Source: Naegleria gruberi
Taxonomy: Eukaryota
Length of the DNA stretch: 64,000 bases
Assembly: GCA_000004985.1 (NCBI GenBank)
Contig: GG738920.1
Direction: 5' to 3' (one strand)
Shown: positions 18,787 through 49,969 of the stretch, one piece after another
Layout: each line of letters starts with the position of its first letter
Position numbering within the stretch: the first letter of the stretch is position 1
Translations under genes and position numbers: made by a program
The notes under the pieces: model-generated
Databases searched by the model: none
Told to the model about the DNA's origin: nothing
Seen by the model: only the letters and a program-made list of their open reading frames with translations

Positions 18787-19009
18787 TTTTTTTGTTTTGA
18801 TTTCTTTTTAGTTCCCACCTGAACTTGATCGATTTGATATCCATTTGGTCTAGACCCAACCAGGTCACGATCGTACACTTCTATACAAAAACAGAGAGTT
18901 CTATTTTCATCATGTACTTGCAATTACTATTATTTAATAATATTGTAATCGTCTAAAATGTTAATTCACAAACTAATACAATAACAAACGTTTTGATTAA
19001 TTGTGCAAA

Positions 19010-20000
19010 TTATTTCTTGGCTTTGTCTGCTTCCATCTTTTCAGATAACCAAAGACCAAGTTTCGAAAAACATGGAGAATTGAAGAGGCATAGCTGATAA
19101 TCTCCAACTGAAGTGGTGTTAATGGCTTCCTCATTGCTCGTTACATTGTTAGTCTTTTGTAGACAATCTAAAATGTATCTTTTACAGTGTACAGTCATTA
19201 ATTGCATTGCCAAAACATGGAAAGATGGTGGTAATAGAACGATATTATCTCCATATCCAACGACTGTTTTCAGTGTTTTTTGCAGTTTAAGCTTTTCAAC
19301 AATTTCATCCATTTGATTTCTGTCTTTATCGGTAAATTCTATTTCGGTTTGATCTGAAGCATCTTCAAGATGAGCGTTTTGGTCATCCTTTAGAATAGTT
19401 AAGTAATGTTTAAACTTTTGCAATGATTCCTTCTGGTTACATAAATGTCTATAATCTTCAATAGAATTAGCATGATGTTGCAAATTTGGATCTGTAATTC
19501 CATCAAAAGTTGCCTTTCCACATGATCGTAAATCTTCCACTAATTTTCTTCTTTCCATGGCCGAAAATTTCTTTTCCAACAAATCAACTCCACTCCAATC
19601 CTTCATACATTCATAATTTCCACCAAGCATTGCTTGTCCTAAGAATTCCAAATTTTAATGTAAAATTATTTAAATTATGAATAATATTAAATCAAATTCA
19701 TGAATATTGATCGGATCAAAACCTACCCATAGCCACATTATTAAACAAAAATTCTGTGTCTGATAAAGAGTATTCTTCCTTCGGAACCAATTCATCAAAA
19801 TCTCTCAGCTTCAACTCTGTAGCCTTTGTTTGAATTCGTGTATGTGCGAGAGCAAAGAATGAAAAAACTTGTTCATTGTGATCAAGAATAGCATCATCAA
19901 ATTCTGGTTTTACCTTCTCTGGTATGGAAAAGGTATCAAAAGTGGTATCTGTTTTATATTCGTATGGCGGAGGTGGTGCTTGGCTTGCTTGTTGTCCCAT
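19010..20000 (-). CDS. hypothetical N-myristoylation-motif protein. complement(join(19010..19638,19727..20000)).
   Basis: Start MGQQASQAPPPPYEYK (Met-Gly, A-rich Kozak aaaaaaaATGggac). An 88-nt GTAGGT...CTTAG intron joins the 128-aa and 213-aa track ORFs in frame (phase 1). Confidence 0.45.
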
Positions 20001-20113
20001 TTTTTTTGTTTTGTGATTGGTTTTTAATTTTGATTTGTAAAGAATCTTAATATATTGTAAAGATTTTAATGAGATTGATTTGTAAGAGAATGGGAATGGC
20101 AAAGCATATCAAG

Positions 20114-23100
20114 CTACTTTTTCTTTTTGTTAGGATAGGAGGAAGAAAAACTTCCTGATCTCTTTGGTTGGTGTGTAATTAGAGAAGATGAAGCTTGTGT
20201 TGGTTGCTGTTGAATGATGGGAGTGTTTGATAGTAAATTCTCCAAATAATTCAGGGCATCCTTAGTTTTGCTGCACTGTTCGTAAATGTTTAAACGAGGA
20301 TTAGAGATCTTTTGAATAATTACACTTGCAGTCCTCTGGTTCGTCTCGAAAGTAATATAAGAGAACAATCCAGTTACTGAATGTAGATTTGTTTCAATGT
20401 GAGATCGTAATAGTGGCATAGTTCTGTGTAGTTCATATTTCTTTGATGCTGGATTGCTGTTCTGGAGGAAATTATTAATATCTCTGCAATTTGAACAATT
20501 AGTTTCACATACAAAGGTTGGAAGTGACCAGTCCCTTACGTCAGCTTTTTCTTGAATATTGAGAATTGATTTAATAAGCTCAATACTACAGGTGACAAGT
20601 TGAGCAAATGCTTTAACATCAATGAATGCACTCTTACCATACGTAATCTCAATATATTTGATGAGAGGAATAAGTATTTTGGCAACTCCAACAAAATCTT
20701 TAATTTTTGAAGTGATTGCTGACGTAACTTCTGATAATTCATTTGGAAAATTGCAATAGCAGATAGCTGAAATAATGGCCTTGCAATTTTCCACACTAAT
20801 ATCATCCGTTATGAACTGATTAATTATCCTTTCTCTAAGTTTCAATAGCATGACATTGGCAACTTCATGATCACCAAGTCCATTCAAGTGAATGACAAAT
20901 TTAAGGGAAGTATTCAAATCCATTTCTGTTATAATACCTTCCAAAAAGTTTTTAACTTCCTCACAAAAGAAATATTTTAGATAGTAAATAATAACAGTAT
21001 AGTACCTTAAAAATTTTTCCTTATTTCCCAATAATAGATTCAATGCTGAAACCATATATGAATGATAATTCTCCAAGTATTTCAATATTAATGATAGTTC
21101 AGTTTGATCTACGACCATACAACGCTTAATCATATAGACAGAAGTACTCTCCATTAGAGGGACAGCACATAATTGCATGCAATTCAATATTCTTTCTACA
21201 GCATAGGGCGAAAGATATCCTGTGGTTGATAAATATTCAAATACATAGTCACACAGGTCTGATGTAAGAGTTGAGTTTTCCTGTAGTAAAATAGTCTCAA
21301 AAGCAAAATCAAATATCATTTTGCTACTGAGATTAGATGTTATAAATTTGAAGAATGGTTGTTTGAAACTATTCATAAATCCAAAGGTGCTTATTAGGTC
21401 TTGCCATGATTTTAAGCATAAATGTTTGTTTGAAAATTCAGTAGCTATTTCATCATTCTTCAATTTAAGTACAGCATTTAGAAGGGCACTTTCTTGCAAC
21501 CAATTAGTCTTCATCATTTCCAATATTTTATCTACATTCGCCTTGTTTGGATTTTCAAGTTGATCATCTACCAACATGTCAAAATATTTATGCTTGCAAT
21601 TACTGTCCAAAAAACGCAAAGCATTAACATAATTCTTCTTTGGAATAATTGCTAAGCAAGAACGAGAATGATATCTTGAAAGTTTGTTAGAAATTTCAAT
21701 CATCTACACATACCTAAAATTAGCTTTAACCAGGAACCTATCATCATGATAAACATGAAAACCATCATTCTCAAAATCGTTAATACGATCAAACGGAATT
21801 ATTATTGAAATATCTGAAACTTTGATCTCCTTAGAAAATATTTCATTTCCATTCTTCAAATATTCAATGGTATAAGTAGAATACGAGTTTTCCAAATCCT
21901 CACTGTCAACATCGTCGAGATCACTATTTTCATAATTTCTTCCTCCTTCATTTTGAAGACGTTTATGACGTTTCCACTCCTGCACACTCATACTTGTAAC
22001 ATCACCTGATTTAGATTTGTGCATATTACCCAAGCATAGGTAGAAATTATTATGTATAGAGTTGTAATTACGTAACCAGTCATAGATAACAGCATCGTTT
22101 TCTTTCAAATTACTACCATCACTCAATTCATGTCTCGAATATTGTTCATTCAAAATATAAATAATGTAGGGAGTTTCTGATTCCCACTCATTAAGTGTTT
22201 TGCTCAGGTAGTTCAGTGTCATTTCTGCAGCATTGGCAGCTGGCATTAGATAATATGGCCCATTGAAAATAACATTATACACCAAAGCCAATCTTAATCC
22301 ACTTGTCAAAACATTTACCTTAAAATCACTCTCATGATAGAAAGCAACGTAGGATGTGGAATAGTGAGATTTTGATGAGTTTGGATAGAAATTTTCATTT
22401 GATTTGTATTTCACACTCATCTCTCCACCTGTATAGACAGAAGGAAGATAGACAACTAGAGTGGCAAACATCTTGTCCTCCTTTTTGTGATCTGAATGAA
22501 AATCGTATTGTCTTTCTCCTTCGAATAACAATAATTTGCTGAGCTTGACTATTACTTCCTTACCTGCTCCAACTCCTAATCCTTGTTTGATTTCCTTTTG
22601 TAATAAATTATTAATCATATCATTCCAATTAGGATTGGTAATTTCAAATTGATTTAATTCCAATTGCCATGGTTTAGTTTCTTCATTCATTGTGGTGAGT
22701 TGAATAATGTCATTGGCTTGTTCCTTCGAAGCAAATGGAAGTGAAATATTCCTTCTCTCCACCACAACATTCGTGTCATTTGACACTAGTAATTGCAAAC
22801 CAATAGCTGGATAGATGTCAAACTCTCCTCCCACAGAAAAGTTTCCCTCTAAAACATCAGGTACCAGTTCTGACAATATCTTGTCCATTCGTTTTGTGGT
22901 TTTTGATGGATGATAGTCCTCTTCTTCATCAGAGGTGAGGAAATAAATTTCATCATCGGAATCGTCTTCACTATCAGCTTTATCATTGTGCATGATCTCC
23001 TCATCTTCATCCGATGAATTAATTTCCATCACATTTTCAAGATTAGTTACTTCTTGATCATTCTGTGAATCATCATCTTCGGTAATATCGATTACTTCAT

Positions 23101-23290
23101 GTCCTTTGATACTCTCTATTACTGATGAGGCAGCAGCTCCAGTAGCAGCATTACTCGAAACCTCTTTTAATTGAATTGTGTTGATGATCATGTCCTCTTG
23201 TTGATCAAAGCAAAAACTTTCAACATCTGAATTTCCTGATGATAAATCTTCATCTAATAGAGGAGAATTTGGTGTGGTTGCTACCAACAT
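20114..23290 (-). CDS. about 1040-aa protein with N-terminal acidic region and a 2OG-Fe(II) oxygenase-like domain. complement(join(20114..21674,21714..23290)).
   Basis: The two track ORFs (528 aa and 529 aa) abut at 21703/21704. A 39-nt intron GTATGTGTAG...TTCTAAC...CAAG (21675..21713) removes the stop and keeps the frame. 2OG-oxygenase motifs: HSDHKKED...TLVVYLPSVYTGGE...H...GLRLALVYN. Confidence 0.5.
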
Positions 23291-23488
23291 TCTCTGATCG
23301 CCAATACTAAACCCAACTTCAGGTGATGATGCAGAAGTTTCCTTGCTGGTTTTCCTTTTGCATTTTTTAAAAAAAGATTAAAAATTAAATTTGTTAAAAT
23401 GTAACGGTTAAATTTTAACAACAACAATTTTAGGTAAATGACATATCTGACTCATTCCAATTTTTAACAATTCTACTGTGAAATTGTT

Positions 23489-26023
23489 TTATTGCTTACA
23501 CCATTGATTAAAAGATTGCTCCTCCCTTCCGAATAATCCATGATCAAATCCATATTTGATAACTCTTTCAATTATTTCGGAAAATGTGCTGTCATCAGAG
23601 TAGTGCTCTAATTCACTCCATAACATTTCAAAGTTGTCCTTTCCAACGATGATTTGTTTCGATACAATGGGTATTAAATCTTTCATTTCGTGTTGGTGAG
23701 CTTTCTTGATGAGTGGAATTTGATGAATTGAGGGAACATAGTTCATGAATCCATAACAATATTGAATGAGATATTTCATCTCTGGACCATATTCTTCCAG
23801 TTCAATGGACCAATTTCCTTCGAATAGAGTTTCAAAGTAGACACTTCTCGAGATGAGAACTGTTTTGTGGCAATGAATTTTCTGATTTCCTACTAGGAAA
23901 CAAATATCACTGGTTGAGTGGTCATTGAATAGGTCCATTAGTGGTGATTTGGAAATATTGTTTGGCTTTTCTTCCCAAGTTACTGGTTTGATAGTTTTTC
24001 TCTTGATGATTAATCTCAAATACTTGTCAACTCTTTCATCAGTTTCAATAAAGAATTCGTATCCAGGTTCTGATGCCTGACTTCCCATGAAATCCAAACA
24101 ATAGTCCTTAATTTTCATCAAAGGAGAAGCTGCTGATGTTGATGAAAAGAATGAAGCATCTCTTGTGAGATAGCTTTCAATAGATTCCAGAATATCCAAA
24201 ACATTATCGAATCCAATTTTTGTAATCACTGATTGAATAATCATTGATTTCATGTAAATTAAATCTCCATGAGCTTGACCAAGTAAAAAGAGAATGCAAA
24301 GACTTTCGTCTGTATCCATATTCGATAATGTGGAATGTTTTTGATAGAGAATTTGATCCAAAATTCTCTGAACTATAGAGCATTCCTTCTCGTTCAAAGA
24401 GCTAATGAAATTATTATTCGAAATAACATTCTTATAGAAATTAGGAGTCATTCGTGCAAGAAGTGGTCTAAAGGCAATCAATCTATCAAATCTATCCATT
24501 TCAAGTTTCCGTACAGAAATATTATCTTCAAAGTGCCAATAATTTACTGCATCCGAAGCAAAATCTCTATTCATATGATCCACCAATGCCTGCTTTCTCA
24601 ATTCCTCCAAATCTATATTCTTCTTTTTGCAAATATTCAATATAATAGAGTCGACAGAAGCTTTGGCATGGAGCAGCAATTTGATAATGTTCCAATGCTC
24701 AAGAGTGCAAGCAATTAAAAGAGGTGTCTGTTATTATTGTGGTTGTTATGGTTGTGGTTGTTTGGAGAAGAGATGCAGTTGATGATGAAGACGGTTAATA
24801 GCGATGTTAAATTGTGTGGCAACTTACTTTCTGTGTTGTAGTGAGCTGTGCGTCAGTGTTGCTGAGATACTTACATACTGTGAAGTTGTGGAAATGTGTA
24901 AAAAGAACCAAATATTACAAATGCACTTACTATCTAAAAAAGTAAAGTCTAGACTGTTGGTGATGCGAAACTTACAAGCTGAAAAATGATAAGAACTTTA
25001 GTTTAGAGATTCCAAAGGAGCAACATACCATATTCATCTAAATTCCCAAAACCTTTTAACCATCAAACTTCATTGCTGGAATACTTACTGTCTGAGGCAA
25101 GTCAGTTAACACACAATATTTCAATATTGGTACTTACTTCCTATGTGTTGTGTAAGAATCTTTAAACTGTATCCAATACTTACATGCTGGCAAGAGTGTG
25201 AATTAATTGTTGCTCCAACCTGAATTACTACTTACCCACTATTAAAATAATGATTGATTATCCATTCGTTCCTAGCTGGTTAAAATAATCTACACTTACA
25301 TCGAACTATTCCATTTAGGATAAACTACATTAGTTATGGTGCCTACTTACAAACTGGAACAATGTGTGAAAATAATGGATTGGAATCTCTCTTAATACTT
25401 ACCCCTTGATTAACGTCTGTGCGATTACAATCTAACAACATTCTAACCAATTCTTCATTTCCTCTTTGACAAGAGACACATAGAGGTGTCTTTTCAAATG
25501 CGTTTGGAAATTTGATATCCAAAGTGTTTACTTACTTCCTATGAACGTGTCAATGAAATTTTAACTTCTGAATCACTTACTTCCTACAAGCACATAAGTG
25601 ACACAAGTGTTTCATCATGATCATCACAATAACTGATTAATAATTATGATTAGAATTAATTCACTTACCATCTAGATGATATTCAAGCTTTTACAACATT
25701 TTCGTTATCTAAATAACTTACAAACTATTTCAGAATGAGTTGACAAAATTCTTCTCAATACTACTTACTCCAATATTTGTATTTAAATGAGGAATCTTGA
25801 GTAAATTATCAACGAGTACTTCCTGTTCCTGTTCACAGGCCCAATATAATAATGTCTTATCCTGTAAATTCTTCAGTGGTTTATTAATCATCCATCTATC
25901 CTCCACAAGAGATGGCGGAAGTTTGCAATTCTCTAAAACCGATTCAATCATCATTAGACTATCTTCCCTCTGTGTCTCAGAAGCAGAAGTTGTGAACGTG
26001 GCCTGTAAAGTGGAGCTGTTCAT
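23489..26023 (-). CDS. ankyrin-repeat + BTB/POZ domain protein encoded by 3 normal exons and 14 microexons
   Basis: Exons on minus strand: 25769..26023 (M...KTLLYWACEQ...LNTNIG), then microexons 25722..24, 25669..71, 25581..83, 25536..38, then 25403..25489 (TPLCVSCQRGNEELVRMLLDCNRTDVNQG). Then microexons 25351..53, 25300..05, 25236..38, 25184..86, 25138..40, 25089..91, 24976..78, 24931..33, 24875..77, 24828..30, then 23489..24727 (TPLLIACTLEHWNIIKLLLHAKASVD... plus BTB DICFLVGNQKIHCHKTVLISRSVYFETLF). Every spacer is bounded by ct...acttac on the + strand (AG...GTAAGT on minus). Confidence 0.55.
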
Positions 26024-26460
26024 TTTGTTTTTTTGGAGCTTTAACGAGCGAGATGGCCACTTTCACTTTTTGTGGCGCGAGGAAAAAGATGAATTCAATG
26101 CCAACAACAGCAACCTTGAAGATGTGATAAGGGCGCTGTATATTGAGACAATTTCAAGTTGAGGAAATTTCCTTATGAAGAGGTGTGAATAATGGTCTGT
26201 TGGAATGAGGGTATGAACTCTCACAAAGTTTTCCTGACGTGGCAGTAAGCTGTGTGAAAAAAATGGTCTGATTAGAAGCCAGTAAACAGAATTAATTTTG
26301 CATTTTACTGTTTATTTTAGATACTGTTTAACTATTGACCTCTTCAATTAGCAAATGGTGTTGCTCCACTATCCAGAGTCAAAATATATTCTTCAGAATC
26401 AAGATGACTCAGAAATCAACGCACGAAAGTACAATCTCTACAAATATAAGCAAAATTATT

Positions 26461-26531
26461 TGCATTAGCCGGGAGTCGAACCCGGGTCACCAGCTTGGAA
26501 GGCTGGTATGATACCGTTACACTACTAATGC
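26461..26531 (-). tRNA. tRNA-Gly (anticodon UCC)
   Basis: Reverse complement is GCATTAGTAGTGTAACGGTATCATACCAGCCTTCCAAGCTGGTGACCCGGGTTCGACTCCCGGCTAATGCA. It folds as a cloverleaf with anticodon loop CTTCCAA and T-arm GGGTTCGACTCCC. It is near-identical in layout to eukaryotic tRNA-Gly-TCC. No intron, CCA not encoded. Confidence 0.85.
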
Positions 26532-26599
26532 TCGTTATTAAGCGTATTAAGGAATAATCATCTTTCCTTACACTACAATTAAGATATTATTGTTTTAAT

Positions 26600-29500
26600 T
26601 TATTGATTCAAATGCTTTAGTGCATCAAAGCCTATAACTGCAAGAAAACCAGAACCTACCAATGCTGGAATGACTGTATAAATATACATGTGATAATAGG
26701 CAATCACAAGTGGCCAACCAATCCATATAATAGTAATTGGCATTAGTATTAATTGTCCTAAAATTCCCAAATTTTTACAAAATCTTCCACAAGACTTGAG
26801 TAACCCAACGTAAATATCTGTTAAAATACTCATTCCTACTGAAGCATTGAAATAGGATCTGTATGCATGTATACTTTCCAGTGAAACAAAACCATACCAG
26901 AATACACAGTATCCCCAAGCAATAATAAATAACAAGATATTGATCCAATAGAATATTCCTGACTCTGCTATCAATACAAAAGACAATAACCAAAACACCC
27001 AACCTAACACAAAATCTTGAATGTAGAAGGTATAAACATGTAAAATAAATACATAGTAAAGAATTGGAGAGATGTTGTAAAGGTTACTAACAAGTGATGA
27101 AGACCACCCACCAATACTACCAATGCTCATTACAGTTTTACAAACAAGTACTCTTATATCAAAATAGAAAGGACTGAATGCAACTGAAAATCCATAGAGA
27201 ATTATTCCCACAGAGCTAAGAACAGAAGCAATACCAAGGAATACACTTGTTGCGTACTTCTTTCCATAAAAACTTCTATAGTTCCACAGTTGGAAGTCCC
27301 TATCACCCCACCATCTATACCCTAAGAATGGGAAAACATCCATTAGGTTGAAGAGTTTTTCAGTTAGGGAAACCAACAACATGAATAGGTTGATTGGAAT
27401 TAACAGTACCAAGAACTCAATTCTATCCCATGTCATATCACTTTCTATTCCTTCAACGTGTGAGAAGAGGCTAATGAGATAATAGAACGGATAAAGAACC
27501 AATCCCAAGAGCTTGTATCTAATGAAGAAAAGCTTGTAGATGTGTTCTATGACATGTTGTGTTTCAGCCTTGACAATATGATGGAAACCAGCTTTGTAGT
27601 CATCATTGACAGCATCCTCAAAAGTGTACTGCTTGTATGAGTAACGACTCTTTTTTTCTAGATATCTCTTGATATACTCATTTCTATTCTCAGAATCTGA
27701 AGCAGAGAAGGCCTTCTTGAAAACAGATGTGAAATCTTCATTCTTATATGATCCAATAGCACTGTAGTAAGCTTCATTCAAGTTGATATTATTGTAATAG
27801 TGGTAAGAGTTATAATTATTGGTATTGTTATACTTGGCTTGGAACTTTTTGTCAATCAAATTTGCCTTCTTATCAATATCGAGATACAATTGCCAAAGGA
27901 AGGAATCCTGTCTTGACAATTCGTGCCAATGTTTACAGACACGATCAAAGCTTGCTGCATTTTCTTCAGGGGTGAGGTAAGTCAAAATTTCAAAGAACAT
28001 ATCACTTGGTAATATCTCACCATTATCCTCACTTGTGTTTTTGGTTTTTGATTTGGTGGTTGAGAATGGTTTTGTTTTCATGAACGCCATTAAATGCTTA
28101 ATACATGCAACTGTGAAGAAATACAATCTCTTGACAGTGTAAGGGAATTGATAAACAAATGTAAGATTAATAAATAAAGCTGCAAGGCAAATGATATCCA
28201 AAATAGCACTCTTGAATTCAATCCACAATGTTCTTCTAACACCTTCCTTTAGCATCAAGTATCTGTACACAACGAATGGTATTCTCCAGAACATTACCAA
28301 TAGAGCAATACCAAATACAAGAGTCAGCAAATCAACAAGTGTCTTGGCAATTAAAACTCTAAGTTCTCTTCTTCTTTCTTCATCTCTGTTCTTCCACTGT
28401 TCATAGAGGAAAAGATATTTGAACATAAAGTAAACTCTATATGGAATAACAATACAAGTACATAGAGAAATTATAACAAGTGGAATATCAATGATTAATT
28501 GCAATGCCTGATCTCTAATAAATTCTCTATATCCTCTCTTAGATTTCTTCTTTGAAAGGAAGTGATAAAGCTCAACATTTCTGTAAACAGACAACACAAC
28601 TACCAATGTGAGTAGCATGTATGGTACATCAAGTATAATTTGACTAAGATGGTATCTAATAATTCCTCTTCTTCCCTTAGCTGTTTCTTCGATCCATGCT
28701 GATTTCAGTGCATTTGGAATTCTCCATAAAAGAAGTGGAATAAGAGCTATGTGAATTATGTCGAGAATGAGTTCGTAAAATTCCAAAAGAATGGAATAGT
28801 GAGCTTCTGATAGCTTTCCTGAAACATAAGCAGCAGTAATGATATTTACAACTCGCTTCGATCTCCAGGATACCAATAGCAAGGCTGAACATAAAATGCA
28901 AGGAATATCTAGGACCGTTAGGAAAGCGTTAGTTCCCAATAGGATTAATCGTTTCTTATAGTCTGTTTCGTTTGCTAAGGCTCTTAATATATGTTTGATT
29001 CTCCAAACAGTGAGGGATGAAAGAAGGAATAAAATAATTATAGGAATGTCTTTAACTAGATTCCAAAAAACGAGAGCTATTTGTTTGTGGACTTCCAATG
29101 CTTCTCTGATAGCAAATGTAGATTTGAAAACAGGATGTGTCTTGAGAACAGCAACTAAATCCTTGATTCTATAAACTGTGAGAACAATAATTGCAGAAAA
29201 TACAGTACAAATCAAATCCAAAGGAATTGATAAAGCTTGAGAAACAATTACCTTGGCGGCCAATTTCTTTGGTTCCTTCTGCCCAACAAGAGACTTCATA
29301 GTTGTGACAGTAATTGGAATACGGTAGACTGTGAATGTTACCAAATAAGTGCAGATAATTAATGGGATTTGGAGAGGAAGCAAATAAAGTTGCTTTAACA
29401 CCTTTCCTCTAAAGAAGGTGAATAATTCTCTCTGCTTACCCAACTCTTTTTCTTCCTTCTTTGCCTTTTTGTATTTTCTAAATAAGAGGAAGATAGTAAA

Positions 29501-31401
29501 GATGTGCATGATGGAGAGTATCATTAAAACTAGAGAAATAGTAAATGGGATATCTATCATGGCATCCAAAAATTGTTGAAGAGCTAATTTTCTTCTCTTT
29601 TCTGCAGTTTCATATTCTTCTTTATGGAATACCCAAATCTTGAGAATAATTACTGGTAAACGCCACATTGACAGCAAACCCAACAAAATAAAAGGTAAAT
29701 CTTTCAAGACTGCAAAAGCTTCAGAAATAATAATAAATTGATAGAGAGTGTCTTCTGTTCTTATTCTCTTAATAGTTGTACCTACTCTGTAAAGAGTTGG
29801 AACGACAAGGACTACCATTGCAGTTATTGCTACCACATCAAGAATACTTTGTACAAATTCTTCCATGGCCTTGTTTCTCATACTTCCCGCCTTTTCTTCA
29901 TTGGTAATGATGGTAAGATAGTGTAGAATAATTCTTGGAATTCTCCACAATGACATAATTCCTAAACAAATAAAAGCAATATCAATAATCCAATTTTTGA
30001 AAATATCCCTAATAAGTTCTCTTCTCTGAATAAAAATTTCATTTCCAACAACCTCTACCTTATCAAGTTCATCGCTATCACTATTTGAAAAGAATTTCTC
30101 ATCATAAAAGACATCAATAAATATGGAAGAGTAAAGATGGGAAGCTCTCCAAAAGGTAACAAATATTGGAACACATAAAACTATATGCATAAAATCCAAT
30201 ACCATTTGAGAGAACATGTACAAGCTAGTTGAATGGAAGTATAAGAAATTACCCTTCTCAAAGAGCTTCTTTTGTTCGGATCTAGTAATTTCCCATCTGT
30301 ATCTGGTTACAAATAATGTAATGAATGCCAATAATGAAGGCAAATCAAGGACCAGACAAATAAATTGTTCGAATGTGATTACTCTCATAGATTTAGTTCT
30401 CTTTTCATCTCTATATTGTTGAATTATTGGAATAAATCTATAAATGGTGATTGAAAGACAAAGACCTAGAGCAATAAATGGCATGTCAATAAGTACTTCT
30501 ACACAATGTGAGAAACAGTAAATAGCTCTGTCAAACCCTTCAGCTGGTTGTTCTTTGAATCCTTTGATAAATCCCTTAATTCTATAAAATCCAATAATAT
30601 TAAATAGAATACTCAAAGCATATGCTGGTATTTCCATAAGAATATAGCATCCATTTCTGAAAAATAGTTCGTGTGTCCATTTTTGGCTCCAAACATGAGG
30701 AATTCTCCACATGGTAACTGCAATCAATAACTGATAATTCAAGTTAAAATATTTAAAAGTCAAACAATAATACATACACAAAATGGCAAGCATAAATAAT
30801 CTAACACTGCTTTAACAGTATAATCAGCCATTAAATCAGTAAATGCAGATAATGTTTGAGATTTGTATCCTTGTTTTAAAAAGTATATGAATCTGACAGG
30901 ATTTACCAACATTACAATAGAAAATAAATGTTTAGGCAAACGTATTTGGAATTCACCCCAATCAGAGAAGATATCTACATTACTATTACGATAGCTTCTT
31001 CCAATCTTGTCATCCCACACAATGAAAGCTCTAATTGACATGGCCAACATGGACAAGAAGGTGACTGTCAATGAAATCATCATACTCCAAAAACCTGTAG
31101 AATTTTCCGAAATGTAAAGAGCATAAGTTTCATAGAATGCAAATATTGGATACAAAACAATGGATGGTACTGCAAGTGTAACGATCGGATACATGACTGG
31201 AAACATTAAATAATAGATCAACAATACACCATTATTAAAGTCTGAGTATAAACGCTTTCTACTTCCATAATTATGTGAAATATCCAATGCCAATGTGAGT
31301 AATAATAATGCTGGTGAATAAAAGAGGCATGATACAAAATCAATTACTATTAACCCCAATTTGAGGGCTATTCTCAGTAGAGTTACCACTAACAACTCCA
31401 T
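26600..31401 (-). CDS. about 1580-aa polytopic membrane protein with internal F-box and repeated [LVM]WRIP motifs. complement(join(26600..30730,30778..31401)).
   Basis: A 47-nt GTATGT...TATCAG intron (30731..30777, phase 0) joins the 213-aa and 1397-aa track ORFs. More than 20 predicted TM helices, many followed by WRIP/YRIP/WRLP. Central F-box ILPSDMFFEILTYLTPEENAASFDRVCKHWHELS. Confidence 0.5.
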
Positions 31402-31707
31402 TCCGATATGATGATGATGATGTTGTAAACAGTAATAAAAATAATCAGCTAATGATGGGTGCTGATTTAAAAGATACCAAGCATCTGTCTCTGATAATTT
31501 TTTTAAGTGGAAGAAAAGTTCATTCAGCTGTGGTAACCTTTTGGGAACACCAAAAACTAAAACGAACAGAGAACTAACACGTAAAAGAAGAACATTTAAA
31601 AAATTAAAAGATACAATACTAAGCGAAACTGCATTGAAAACATTGATCTATTTTCTTTCCATACACATGACGTCAATTACAAAGGAGAAAAGGAAGATTA
31701 ATTTACT

Positions 31708-32460
31708 TTACATGAAACTAGTTTCAGAATTATTCATAGCTGCTGATTGTTGTCTTTGTGTTAAAATACGCTTAAATCCTTCTATCAAGTTTGGATGTTC
31801 ACCTTTGAATATTATGTTAACATTATCTAGAGTTTGTTGGGCTGATTGTTGTTGATTGTTAAGCAGTTTGATTTGTTGTAAGAAATCAGCAAATTGTCTA
31901 TTTGTCAAAACTTCTTTAGCTTGCTTAAAGAATTCCTTGCCTTCCAAAGCTTGAGCTTGTTGTGATTGAGTTTGTTGTTGCATTATTGATTGATTATTGA
32001 TATTTGAAGAATTGAAACTTCTATTCTCTGACATCATGCTGTTATTTGTTTGAGTTGGAGGAATGAATTGACTTGTGTTGTTTCCATTCGAAGAAGGATC
32101 TTCAAGTTCTTCCAAATTGATTGATTGAATAATTTGTTTCTTGAATGCTTTCAACTTTGAAAGTTCCCCGTTGAGGGCCTTTACTTGAGCTGACAGTCTA
32201 TCTCTTTCACTTTGGAGATCTTGGTTCATTTCTTGTATAGTTTTCATGGCAGTATTGAGACTTTGATATTCAAATTGTAATTTGCTGTGTTGTTGATTAA
32301 TTTGATGAATTTCCTCTTGCTTTTTTTGTCCAATTTTTTTCAATCCTTCAATTTCATCCAACATTTGTAATTCCTTTGTTTTCCATGCTTTGTTTAAAAT
32401 AGCAATGCCCAATTCAAATTGTTCTTCGGCATTGTTTGTATTAAGACTACTAGTGTTCAT
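31708..32460 (-). CDS. coiled-coil, Gln/Asn-rich hypothetical protein
   Basis: 250-aa ORF with ATG at 32458-32460. Heptad-rich segment (LQSERDRLSAQVKALNGELSKLKAFKKQ). No catalytic motifs. Confidence 0.4.
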   Translation of the reverse strand: MNTSSLNTNNAEEQFELGIAILNKAWKTKELQMLDEIEGLKKIGQKKQEEIHQINQQHSKLQFEYQSLNTAMKTIQEMNQDLQSERDRLSAQVKALNGELSKLKAFKKQIIQSINLEELEDPSSNGNNTSQFIPPTQTNNSMMSENRSFNSSNINNQSIMQQQTQSQQAQALEGKEFFKQAKEVLTNRQFADFLQQIKLLNNQQQSAQQTLDNVNIIFKGEHPNLIEGFKRILTQRQQSAAMNNSETSFM

Positions 32461-48184: not shown

Positions 48185-49816
48185 TTAAAGAGTGATATTT
48201 TTCATCTTCCATTGTCCATCAATAAACGAACCAAAACTCTTAAAGTTAGCAAACGAAAAGTTACCATCAATATTTGAGCCAGCAAAGTTTTCAGAGGAGA
48301 AGGCAATCTTTCCATCTTTCCAATTCCAAACACCAGAGATAAATTTACCTTCTTTCCATTCTCCATCTAAACTAGAACCATCAGCTGCGAAAGTGTAAAC
48401 ACCTTTTCCAGTTTTATGGTCGTCCTTAAACTCTCCAACGTACATATCACCGTTGCTATACAAATAAATTCCTCTTTCACATTGTTTCTTGTCGTCCACA
48501 TAGTCACCATAGAATCTATCTCCATTGTGATACAACATTCTTCCTTTTCCATTCTTCATATTTTTCTTCCAATCTCCTACATAGTAGCAGAGAGGAACAT
48601 TTTCTGGATTGAAAGCTTCTTCATCACCTTCAGCATTTCCATCATCTTCCTCGTCTTTTTCTTCTTGTTCTTTTTCTTTCTTTTCCCTCAATTGTTTCAA
48701 ATAGTCACCTCTGTAAATATAGGCACCCATTCCCTCACGAATGGTGTTGTCGAAAGTACCAATATATACATCGTCATTTGGATAGTATGCCGATCCGAAA
48801 CCATGTCTGTATTTTACAATAATTGGTTTAGGTGGTTCGACAACCTTGACTTTCTTTGGCTTCTTCTCAACAGGTTCCTTAGGTTCATCGTCGTCATTAT
48901 TTTCATTGTCATCTTCATTCTTTTCCTCAGAGTTTTCATCTGTGGTAGGGGGTTCTTCCTTAGGTTCTTCTTTTGGTGGTTCCTCTTCAACTACTGGTGG
49001 TATTTCAACAGGTATTTCAAATTCGGCTGTTTCTCCCTCATAAATACCATATTCTCCAATTTGCTTAATCAACTCTACGGTATACTTTTCAAATTTCTCA
49101 ACAAGTCCCGAGGCAAAGTCTTTTTCTTCTTCTGGTTCTTCTTCTTCTTCAGTTGATTCTTTTGGTTCATTTTGCTTCTTTTCAAGAAGATGGAGTCTTC
49201 TTTTTTCTTTTTGCCATTCCTTGATTATTTCAAAATCTTGCTCATTGACCAAATTGGCTACCTTCTTTGGTCCAAAAGCTCTCAATAAAAATTCAATAAC
49301 AGGATACTTTCTATTCATTGTTGCCCAACTAACAATTGAATATCCTTTAATAGGATGCTTCATTGAGATAAGTTCATGAGAGCTACTAGTACTGCCACCA
49401 CTATCATCACCATCATCACCCCCATCTTCCTTTCTCTTTGCTTCCTTAAATATTTTGATCACTTCATTAACTTTGTTTTCATCAGCAAATTGGAAAACTG
49501 GAGGAATATTAATTACTACAACAAACAAACTTGGCCATTCAATTGCCTCCACTTTTTTGACTGTAAGAGAAATTCTCCACTTATTTGTATCAAGTTTCCA
49601 GTCCAAAGAATTTGGATTTACAGCCTCATGAAGTGTATCCTCCAATAATTTTTCTTCATCTTCTCCCGGTTTTCTTACAACAATTGACAATTTTTTCCCT
49701 ACAATTGAAACATCAATATCCTCCTGTACCAAATCTTCAGGACTTGGTAGCTCAACTGTTATAGCATTCTTTGTTTGCTTAAACGTATAATTATGTTCTT
49801 GGGGTTCATCAGACAT
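48185..49816 (-). CDS. CS (p23/HSP20-like) domain + MORN-repeat protein
   Basis: N-terminal CS-like beta-sandwich (YTFKQTKNAITVELPSPEDL...DVSIVGKKLSIVVRK...WRISLTVKK), a central E/K-rich acidic region, and C-terminal MORN repeats (YIGTFDN..REGMGAYIY, YGDYVDDKKQCERGIYLYSNGDMYVGEFKDDHKTGKGVY). The track start is TTG. ATG at 49814-49816. Confidence 0.5.
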   Translation of the reverse strand: MSDEPQEHNYTFKQTKNAITVELPSPEDLVQEDIDVSIVGKKLSIVVRKPGEDEEKLLEDTLHEAVNPNSLDWKLDTNKWRISLTVKKVEAIEWPSLFVVVINIPPVFQFADENKVNEVIKIFKEAKRKEDGGDDGDDSGGSTSSSHELISMKHPIKGYSIVSWATMNRKYPVIEFLLRAFGPKKVANLVNEQDFEIIKEWQKEKRRLHLLEKKQNEPKESTEEEEEPEEEKDFASGLVEKFEKYTVELIKQIGEYGIYEGETAEFEIPVEIPPVVEEEPPKEEPKEEPPTTDENSEEKNEDDNENNDDDEPKEPVEKKPKKVKVVEPPKPIIVKYRHGFGSAYYPNDDVYIGTFDNTIREGMGAYIYRGDYLKQLREKKEKEQEEKDEEDDGNAEGDEEAFNPENVPLCYYVGDWKKNMKNGKGRMLYHNGDRFYGDYVDDKKQCERGIYLYSNGDMYVGEFKDDHKTGKGVYTFAADGSSLDGEWKEGKFISGVWNWKDGKIAFSSENFAGSNIDGNFSFANFKSFGSFIDGQWKMKNITL

Positions 49817-49969
49817 TTTTTTTGTATATTTTTGAATGATGATATTTGGCGCCAATTTTAAATCATCTACAATTTTAAACCTGCTAAACCATTTCCCGCC
49901 AAAAAAACAAGTTTAATAAGTTGGGGAAAAAGGAACTTGATTATTAGATAAATATAAACTTTAAAAAAA

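Follow-up and report, generated by a model that had tools for sequence, protein, structure and literature searches.

We analyzed a 64,000-nucleotide (nt) stretch of contig GG738920.1 from Naegleria gruberi (assembly GCA_000004985.1), here called the window, which is AT-rich (∼33% GC) and densely coding on both strands. The locus under study, at positions 26461 to 31401, carries a gene for a very large hydrophobic protein with an embedded F-box. The open reading frame (ORF) listing gives two minus-strand ORFs in different frames, one of 213 amino acids (aa) at 30760..31401 and one of 1397 aa at 26600..30793, which share 34 nt. Excision of 47 nt (window 30777..30731, GTATGTATTATTGTTTGACTTTTAAATATTTTAACTTGAATTATCAG) joins them into a single frame that runs for 1584 codons and has its only stop at the end. 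This segment (30731..30777, minus strand) has the marks of a spliceosomal intron, with GTATGT at its 5′ end, a branch-like TTTTAAC element, and CAG at its 3′ end, and its removal restores the frame. At the splice junction, DYLCLPFC is joined to LLIAVTMWRIP, so that the first unit of a long repeat array is rebuilt in full; the rebuilt unit aligns without gaps to the Naegleria lovaniensis ortholog (DLICIPFALLILVTMWRVP) and to a distant homolog (DYLCLPFALILFILPWRL). The whole gene thus spans 26600..31401 on the minus strand, with exon 1 at 31401..30778 (aa 1–208), exon 2 at 30730..26603 (aa 209–1584), and a TAA stop at 26602..26600.

The first ATG yields the N-terminus MELLVVTLLRI, which matches that of the N. 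lovaniensis ortholog (MGELLVVTLLRF), and because the ortholog begins at the same Met, the start call is probably right. The 150 nt 5′ of this ATG (31402-31551) are also open in frame (reading ...QHHHHHIG up to MELLV) and contain no start codon; an additional upstream exon is possible. The ortholog (P0002) is annotated as an F-box domain-containing protein and has 1523 aa, with 51% identity over 97% coverage. Its model lacks part of repeat 12 (aa ∼728–760) and the last two conserved helices, which bear a GxLGxLLLxP..W..WP motif, and was probably misbuilt at an intron or contig end. Despite these gaps, the ortholog supports the proposed 1584-aa gene structure. Another homolog is a distant protein from a EukProt transcriptome.

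Two other readings of the locus had to be weighed: that it holds at least two separate genes, one for a 213-aa membrane protein and one for a 1397-aa F-box protein, or that it is a frameshifted pseudogene. The different frames of the two ORFs and their 34-nt overlap would fit either, and the public N. gruberi model for the locus is plainly wrong. Both readings have to contend with a 47-nt segment that has canonical GT...AG ends and whose removal rebuilds a repeat that aligns to both homologs, with an N-terminal region of 185 aa that is conserved and collinear in those same homologs, and with an F-box, most of the repeats, and a C-terminal domain that all lie within one unbroken ORF. We consider them very improbable. 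Because intron removal rebuilds the repeat, the homologs align gap-free, and the N-terminus matches that of the ortholog, we treat the locus as a single two-exon gene with a predicted product of 1584 aa. The initial annotation had likewise described a single protein of about 1580 aa; its F-box lies inside the unbroken 1397-aa ORF of exon 2, with repeats upstream and a hydrophobic domain downstream.

From N- to C-terminus, the predicted protein comprises a hydrophobic domain, 18 tandem repeats, the F-box, a polar linker, and a multihelix domain, and ∼30 hydrophobic segments are found along it by Kyte–Doolittle hydropathy and AlphaFold2. The N-terminal hydrophobic domain (aa 1–185; 30847..31401, minus strand) has ∼4–5 hydrophobic helices, with Kyte–Doolittle segments at aa 2–35, 59–87, and 105–127, and is conserved in the N. 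lovaniensis ortholog and in a second homolog, P0003. The repeat array, delimited with a hidden Markov model (HMM), covers aa 189–1076 (28127..30837, minus strand, intron included). It is followed by the F-box (aa 1114–1157; 27884..28015, minus strand; ILPSDMFFEILTYLTPEENAASFDRVCKHWHELSRQDSFLWQLY), which matches Pfam PF12937, and by a linker (aa 1158–1244; 27623..27883, minus strand) that is rich in N, K, and Y in translation and has a low AlphaFold2 predicted local distance difference test score (pLDDT). The C-terminal domain (aa 1245–1584, 340 aa; 26603..27622, minus strand), defined with a local HMM, has ∼9–10 helices at pLDDT 60–90 and ends in a hairpin motif, G-x-L-G-x-L-L-L-x-P-x4-W-x2-W-P, in which the G, the W, and the W-P are invariant in the alignment. 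Both terminal domains contain helices of normal transmembrane length. In a Pfam scan of the 1584-aa protein, the F-box was the sole match, leaving the repeat and the C-terminal domain unrecognized. Profiles of the whole protein and of the repeat found no meaningful match in the PDB, and the C-terminal domain found no PDB relative by sequence profile or by fold.

The repeat was modeled with an HMM anchored on a W/Y-R motif and iterated over three homologs. It detected 18 tandem units, each with an E value between 5e-9 and 2e-14 and spaced ∼40–70 aa apart; across the family, the commonest period is 47 aa. The initial annotation had noted a W/Y-R-I/L-P motif and suggested an internally duplicated module. 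Both proved real, with the motif forming only the tail of a 47-residue unit: by chance, 0.06 occurrences of [WY]R[ILV]P and 1.05 of D-x(13-17)-[WYF]R would be expected, the protein has 6 and 11, respectively, and none of 5000 shuffles reached either count. The consensus reads R-R-K-x-V-L-x-Q-F-x-x-L-L-L-D-I-P-(12 apolar)-T-x-[WY]-R-x-P-x-L-L-[RK]. Column statistics from 808 repeats in 153 proteins, numbered from the conserved Asp (D), give a basic start at D-13 (Arg 58%, His 18%) and an amphipathic stretch before the Asp, with Gln, Glu, or His at D-7 and Phe at D-6. The Asp itself is conserved in 97% of repeats and is followed by Ile or Leu and then by Pro (55%). From D+1 to D+15 the unit is essentially uncharged (0% at nearly every position), with small residues at D+3, D+7, and D+13, the last being Thr or Ser. 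Then come W/Y (93%), Arg (97%), x-Pro, and an amphipathic basic tail. The distance from Asp to Arg is 16 in 817 of 1112 repeats. A test for joint loss of Asp(n+1) and Arg(n) is powerless because both residues are almost invariant, and the sole evidence on that pair is anecdotal, from the N. gruberi array: repeat 9 lacks W-R, repeat 10 has Gln for Asp, and the last repeat has Gln for Arg. Along the arrays of the 153 proteins, Arg-type and His-type residues at D-13 alternate weakly (a His-type repeat precedes an Arg-type one 99 times, with 75.8 expected, and another His-type one 9 times, with 24.7 expected), which hints at a super-period of two repeats. With no Pfam model and no solved relative, the repeat is, as judged from sequence, previously undescribed.

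The extent of the family emerged only from an exhaustive search. Homolog searches by word index, started from the single protein or from either of two alignments, returned three proteins each; one of the alignment runs scored only the top 8000 word-sharing candidates. When the repeat profile was run exhaustively with HMMER against 1.84 billion cluster representatives, it matched 493 proteins at E<=1e-3, of which 216 reached E<=1e-10 and 47 reached E<=1e-30. Many of these are 1200–3400 aa long with 10–40 matched stretches. Exact look-up named their sources as Anaeramoeba, Mastigella, Mastigamoeba, Pelomyxa (several paralogs), Balamuthia, Soliformovum, Pyxidicula, Polysphondylium, Cavenderia, Paulinella, Diplonema, a picozoan, and metagenomes. 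Taxonomy was checked for Anaeramoeba flamelloides (Metamonada) and Soliformovum (Amoebozoa). We take Mastigella, Mastigamoeba, Pelomyxa, Balamuthia, Pyxidicula, Polysphondylium, and Cavenderia to be Amoebozoa as well, and we presume that the remaining named sources belong to Discoba (with Heterolobosea and Euglenozoa), Rhizaria, and Picozoa. Animals, fungi, and plants were not among the 30 named sources looked up, a sample that was not a systematic search for their absence.

The order of repeats, F-box, and C-terminal domain recurs in distant protists, and by the local HMM the C-terminal domain is common to dozens of family members. It has a short form of ∼270 profile columns, as in N. gruberi, and a long form of ∼430 (e.g., P0045, P0053, P0096, P0084, and P0063). 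The ∼180 columns that set the long form apart also turn up at other places in other repeat proteins and may be a separate domain, or the iterated HMM may have drifted. Members are named in databases as “hypothetical” or carry evidently spurious names (“homeobox,” “rab-gap,” “polyprotein,” “TatA”). We pursued the last of these, the IMG label “Sec-independent protein translocase protein TatA” on the metagenomic proteins P0007 and P0043, and rejected a TatA/TatB identity as spurious: the NCBIfam TatB model scored P0043 at 16.9 bits against a cutoff of 56.5 and matched neither P0007 nor the Naegleria protein. A literature search on member accessions, the GILJ transcriptome, and polytopic F-box proteins found no description of the repeat family. 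The 1584-aa protein, then, looks like a member of an uncharacterized, widely distributed, and apparently ancient protist family. Its layout is found in Amoebozoa and, as we assign the named sources, in Heterolobosea and Euglenozoa, which would indicate an old, selected function.

As proposed in the initial annotation, the F-box is canonical and lies within the protein, ∼70% along its length between the repeat array and the C-terminal domain. PF12937 (F-box-like) matches aa 1115–1155 with E=5.3e-7 and 29.7 bits, above the cutoff of 24.3, and the sequence (ILPSDMFFEILTYLTPEENAASFDRVCKHWHELSRQDSFLWQ) has the canonical LPxD..I..L...VCKxW...LW pattern. When the segment was compared with the PDB, seven of seven sequence matches were F-box domains or proteins (Fbw7, FBXL17, and 1fs1 chain A among them), several of them from entries on Skp1 complexes. 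The N. lovaniensis ortholog also has the F-box. In the 24 top distant family members, Pfam recognized F-box-like in nine, F-box in five, a RanBP zinc finger in one, and nothing else. The Soliformovum protein P0009 matches PF00646 at 26.8 bits. A family-specific F-box HMM found the domain in 16 sequences, always between the repeats and the C-terminal domain. A subfamily comprising the dictyostelid proteins, three Pelomyxa paralogs, and the Pyxidicula and Mastigamoeba proteins has no detectable F-box, keeps the repeats, and has a longer C-terminal domain. By these sequence matches, the F-box is a conserved feature of one branch and not of the whole family. Because the F-box-less subfamily keeps both the repeats and the C-terminal domain, the hydrophobic machinery appears to have a function of its own.

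The initial annotation counted more than 20 transmembrane helices. More than 20 hydrophobic helices are present, in line with the ∼30 segments above; that each repeat contributes one transmembrane helix is doubtful. In such a polytopic arrangement, the 18 repeats would each cross the membrane once in alternating orientation, for a total of ∼30 or more transmembrane helices, with the [WY]-R-x-P helix at the interface on alternating sides and the F-box in a cytosolic loop, where the initial annotation had placed it. Every repeat has 19-residue windows with Kyte–Doolittle values of 1.6–2.6, which would fit this arrangement, and with basic residues at both its ends the repeat could be topologically neutral and insert in either orientation. 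The stretch free of charges, however, measures only 15 residues and is fixed between the 97% conserved Asp and the 97% conserved Arg. Moreover, the loops between repeats are net basic in 16 of 17 cases (K+R 2–11, D+E 1–5) and show no odd/even alternation, the net acidic exception being the long loop between repeats 5 and 6; alternating orientations would leave half of these basic loops noncytosolic.

AlphaFold2 was informative when run with a 35-sequence family alignment that included the last four repeats (mean pLDDT 71.8), and it gave pLDDT 85–95 over those repeats. The predicted unit opens with a continuous helix of 27–31 residues that includes D-x-P; after a break of one residue comes a 12-residue helix whose first residues are [WY]-R, and then a loop of 4–7 residues. 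We had considered a hairpin at D-x-P and dropped that model because the predicted helix is continuous there. A helix of 27–31 residues could cross a bilayer, which again accords with the polytopic arrangement; against that arrangement, fold comparison gave no significant match to a membrane transporter or channel.

Covariation between neighboring repeats, computed over 628 adjacent pairs, bears on how the helices pack. R+7(n) and D-7(n+1) are charge complementary (R-E 42 vs. 14.2 expected and D-H 36 vs. 10.2; E-E 2 vs. 13.2 and R-H 1 vs. 10.3), and D+3(n) and D-9(n+1) are size complementary (A-F 30 vs. 12.3 expected, F-A 31 vs. 17.1, and T-W 17 vs. 3.1). The W/Y of repeat n covaries with D-3(n+1), W occurring where that position holds Ala or Gly and Y where it holds Ile or Val, and D+6(n) covaries with D-6(n+1). 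For neighboring long helices, this indirect evidence favors a parallel register with an offset of -12, with a top-four coupling sum of 6.68 against 4.58 for the best antiparallel register, a value to which the invariant D-D pair contributes. By the same couplings, the short helix would lie antiparallel against the first half of the long helix that follows. Couplings at a parallel offset of -12 would be impossible in an up-down array, whose residues at those positions lie on opposite faces of the membrane. Together, the 15-residue stretch, the basic loops, the AlphaFold2 unit, and the covariation argue against one transmembrane helix per repeat, and we regard the polytopic arrangement as possible, though on the unlikely side.

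We lean instead, with modest confidence, toward a staggered three-helix rod. In this model, each repeat would consist of a long helix A, with an amphipathic basic first half, the Asp, and an apolar 15-residue second half, and a 12-residue helix B. Stacked units would be staggered by half a helix, so that each three-helix step combines B(n) with the apolar half of A(n) before it and the amphipathic half of A(n+1) after it. Continuous helices would join the steps, as in spectrin, into a long rod along which a hydrophobic stripe runs without interruption. The rod would most likely lie flat in the cytosolic leaflet, with a true transmembrane domain holding it at either end; we place it there because it bears >100 Lys/Arg residues, with ∼4–11 in each loop between repeats, and one fully apolar helix segment per step. 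A rod in the cytosolic leaflet would put the F-box, which directly follows the last repeat, on the same side of the membrane as Skp1. Several points weigh against this model. Its geometry is inferred from secondary structure and covariation, the latter over ∼630 repeat pairs that are not independent, and both shared descent and the weak alternation of R-type and H-type repeats can inflate couplings. A first AlphaFold2 run (aa 385–1584, three sequences) reached a pLDDT of only 35 and was discarded as uninformative. The hydropathy of the repeats and the bilayer-long predicted helices would also fit a polytopic topology.

We then considered the protein as a whole. The explanation that best joins these observations, to which we give about an even chance, is a two-exon gene whose product would carry the repeat rod in the cytosolic leaflet and use its F-box to recruit Skp1/SCF to a membrane scaffold. 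The F-box would bind Skp1 and thereby bring the SCF (Skp1–Cul1–Rbx1) ligase, or Skp1 alone, to the scaffold, and the membrane-embedded parts would do the work that ordinary F-box proteins leave to a WD40 or LRR substrate-binding domain. An SCF adaptor role, as the initial annotation suggested for a membrane-anchored protein, is plausible. The F-box might instead bind Skp1 outside an SCF ligase, as in yeast Rcy1 or as Skp1 does in the RAVE and CBF3 complexes, so that Skp1 would have a structural or regulatory part in a membrane scaffold or a transport machine; or the F-box might mainly control the protein's own turnover. In favor of such a role, only some family members carry the F-box, which is missing from the dictyostelid, Pelomyxa, and Pyxidicula paralogs; this suggests an accessory or regulatory module on a machine that can work without ubiquitin ligase activity. 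Pfam also recognizes no WD40, LRR, Kelch, or other substrate-binding domain after the F-box. The residues of the canonical LPxD..I..L...VCKxW...LW pattern are kept all the same, and most characterized F-box proteins assemble into SCF complexes, which weighs against a non-SCF role. The sequence does not discriminate between the two; on balance, we put the non-SCF role on the unlikely side, though the existence of F-box-less paralogs makes it a serious alternative. Some results count against the SCF-recruiting scaffold itself: PF00646 scored 19.8 bits, slightly under its cutoff of 20.5; the PDB matches to the F-box, made with a single-sequence query, have weak E values (0.05–0.76); and the F-box-less paralogs indicate that the family can perform its core function without an F-box.

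The genes next to the locus account for the faulty public model. A tRNA-Gly(UCC) lies at 26461..26531 on the minus strand, identified by ARAGORN and by Rfam RF00005 (69.3 bits). It begins 68 nt past the TAA stop of the 1584-aa gene on the same strand, which agrees with the ∼70 bp given in the initial annotation. We rejected a functional link between the two and regard the tRNA, a standard one 68 nt away in a region packed with genes, as an ordinary neighbor. The N. gruberi model NAEGRDRAFT_59810 (2590 aa) is 100% identical to the 1584-aa protein over 63% of the latter's length. It opens with the product of an upstream coiled-coil ORF (31708..32460), enters the 1584-aa gene near aa 425, exits near aa 1413, and continues into a BTB-domain gene beyond the tRNA. 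As read from these matches, it is a chimera of three genes (window 19000-32460, minus strand) that skips the tRNA-Gly, and the present analysis of the locus corrects it. Immediately downstream, also on the minus strand, is a BTB/POZ gene (23489-24679; Pfam PF00651, E=2e-11). BTB is a domain typical of Cul3 ligase adaptors, so two genes of cullin-adaptor type adjoin here, which may be coincidence. Elsewhere in the window, ORFs of >240 aa each overlap on opposite strands at 48185-49855 (minus) and 48416-49156 (plus), and probably no more than one is a real gene.

As a rule, F-box proteins are soluble adaptors, and the known examples that are tethered to a membrane are attached by a lipid anchor or by one helix. 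A canonical F-box built into a very large hydrophobic protein is a departure from them. If the staggered rod is true, it would be a new way to build a membrane-embedded scaffold, and the repeat itself has a reasonable chance of being a new structural principle. More tentatively, the family may represent a new membrane architecture: a beam tens of nanometers long, made of 18 to ∼40 three-helix steps, lying by its apolar stripe in one leaflet between two transmembrane anchors and, in the F-box branch, coupling membrane sensing or scaffolding to SCF ubiquitination. On this doubtful but possible view, the architecture would be ancient and may be absent from animals, fungi, and plants. With dictyostelid members in Polysphondylium and Cavenderia, a genetically tractable relative may exist, and the family includes the opportunistic pathogen Balamuthia.

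Known systems share single aspects of the proposed design. Spectrin rods are built of three-helix repeats with a period of ∼106 residues, joined by continuous helices. The modeled connectivity of the Naegleria array would be alike, the last helix of one step continuing as the first of the next, whereas its period is ∼47 residues and one helix segment per step is wholly apolar. The in-plane or hairpin membrane segments of caveolin and reticulon offer a further analogy, in that one face of the modeled rod would be fully apolar, as suits a protein set in a single leaflet. Pfam gave no spectrin, caveolin, or reticulon match, and the repeat profile had no sequence match in the PDB. Among ubiquitin ligases, Hrd1 and Doa10/MARCH6 are polytopic RING membrane E3 enzymes that act directly with E2 enzymes. 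By analogy, they would share the concept of ligase machinery in a multihelix membrane protein that selects substrates. The Naegleria protein has no sequence or fold similarity to them and, having only an F-box, would need Skp1, Cul1, and Rbx1.

Closer in kind are the F-box proteins that serve as SCF receptors (PF12937/PF00646, “FBXO/other” class), which it resembles in having a canonical F-box of 40–45 residues above the Pfam threshold. In ordinary F-box proteins, the F-box is near the N-terminus, whereas here it is far along the chain with very hydrophobic domains on both sides. The closest experimentally studied precedent that we found, compared by description only, is Arabidopsis CFB, in which an F-box is likewise tied to the membrane by hydrophobic sequence. 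CFB, of 363 aa, binds ASK1, the Skp1 of plants, through an F-box at its N-terminus and needs its transmembrane domain, one predicted helix at the C-terminus, to localize to the membrane (PMC5853388). Compared with this far simpler one-helix protein, the Naegleria protein sets its F-box within 1584 aa, ∼30 hydrophobic helices, and a repeat array.

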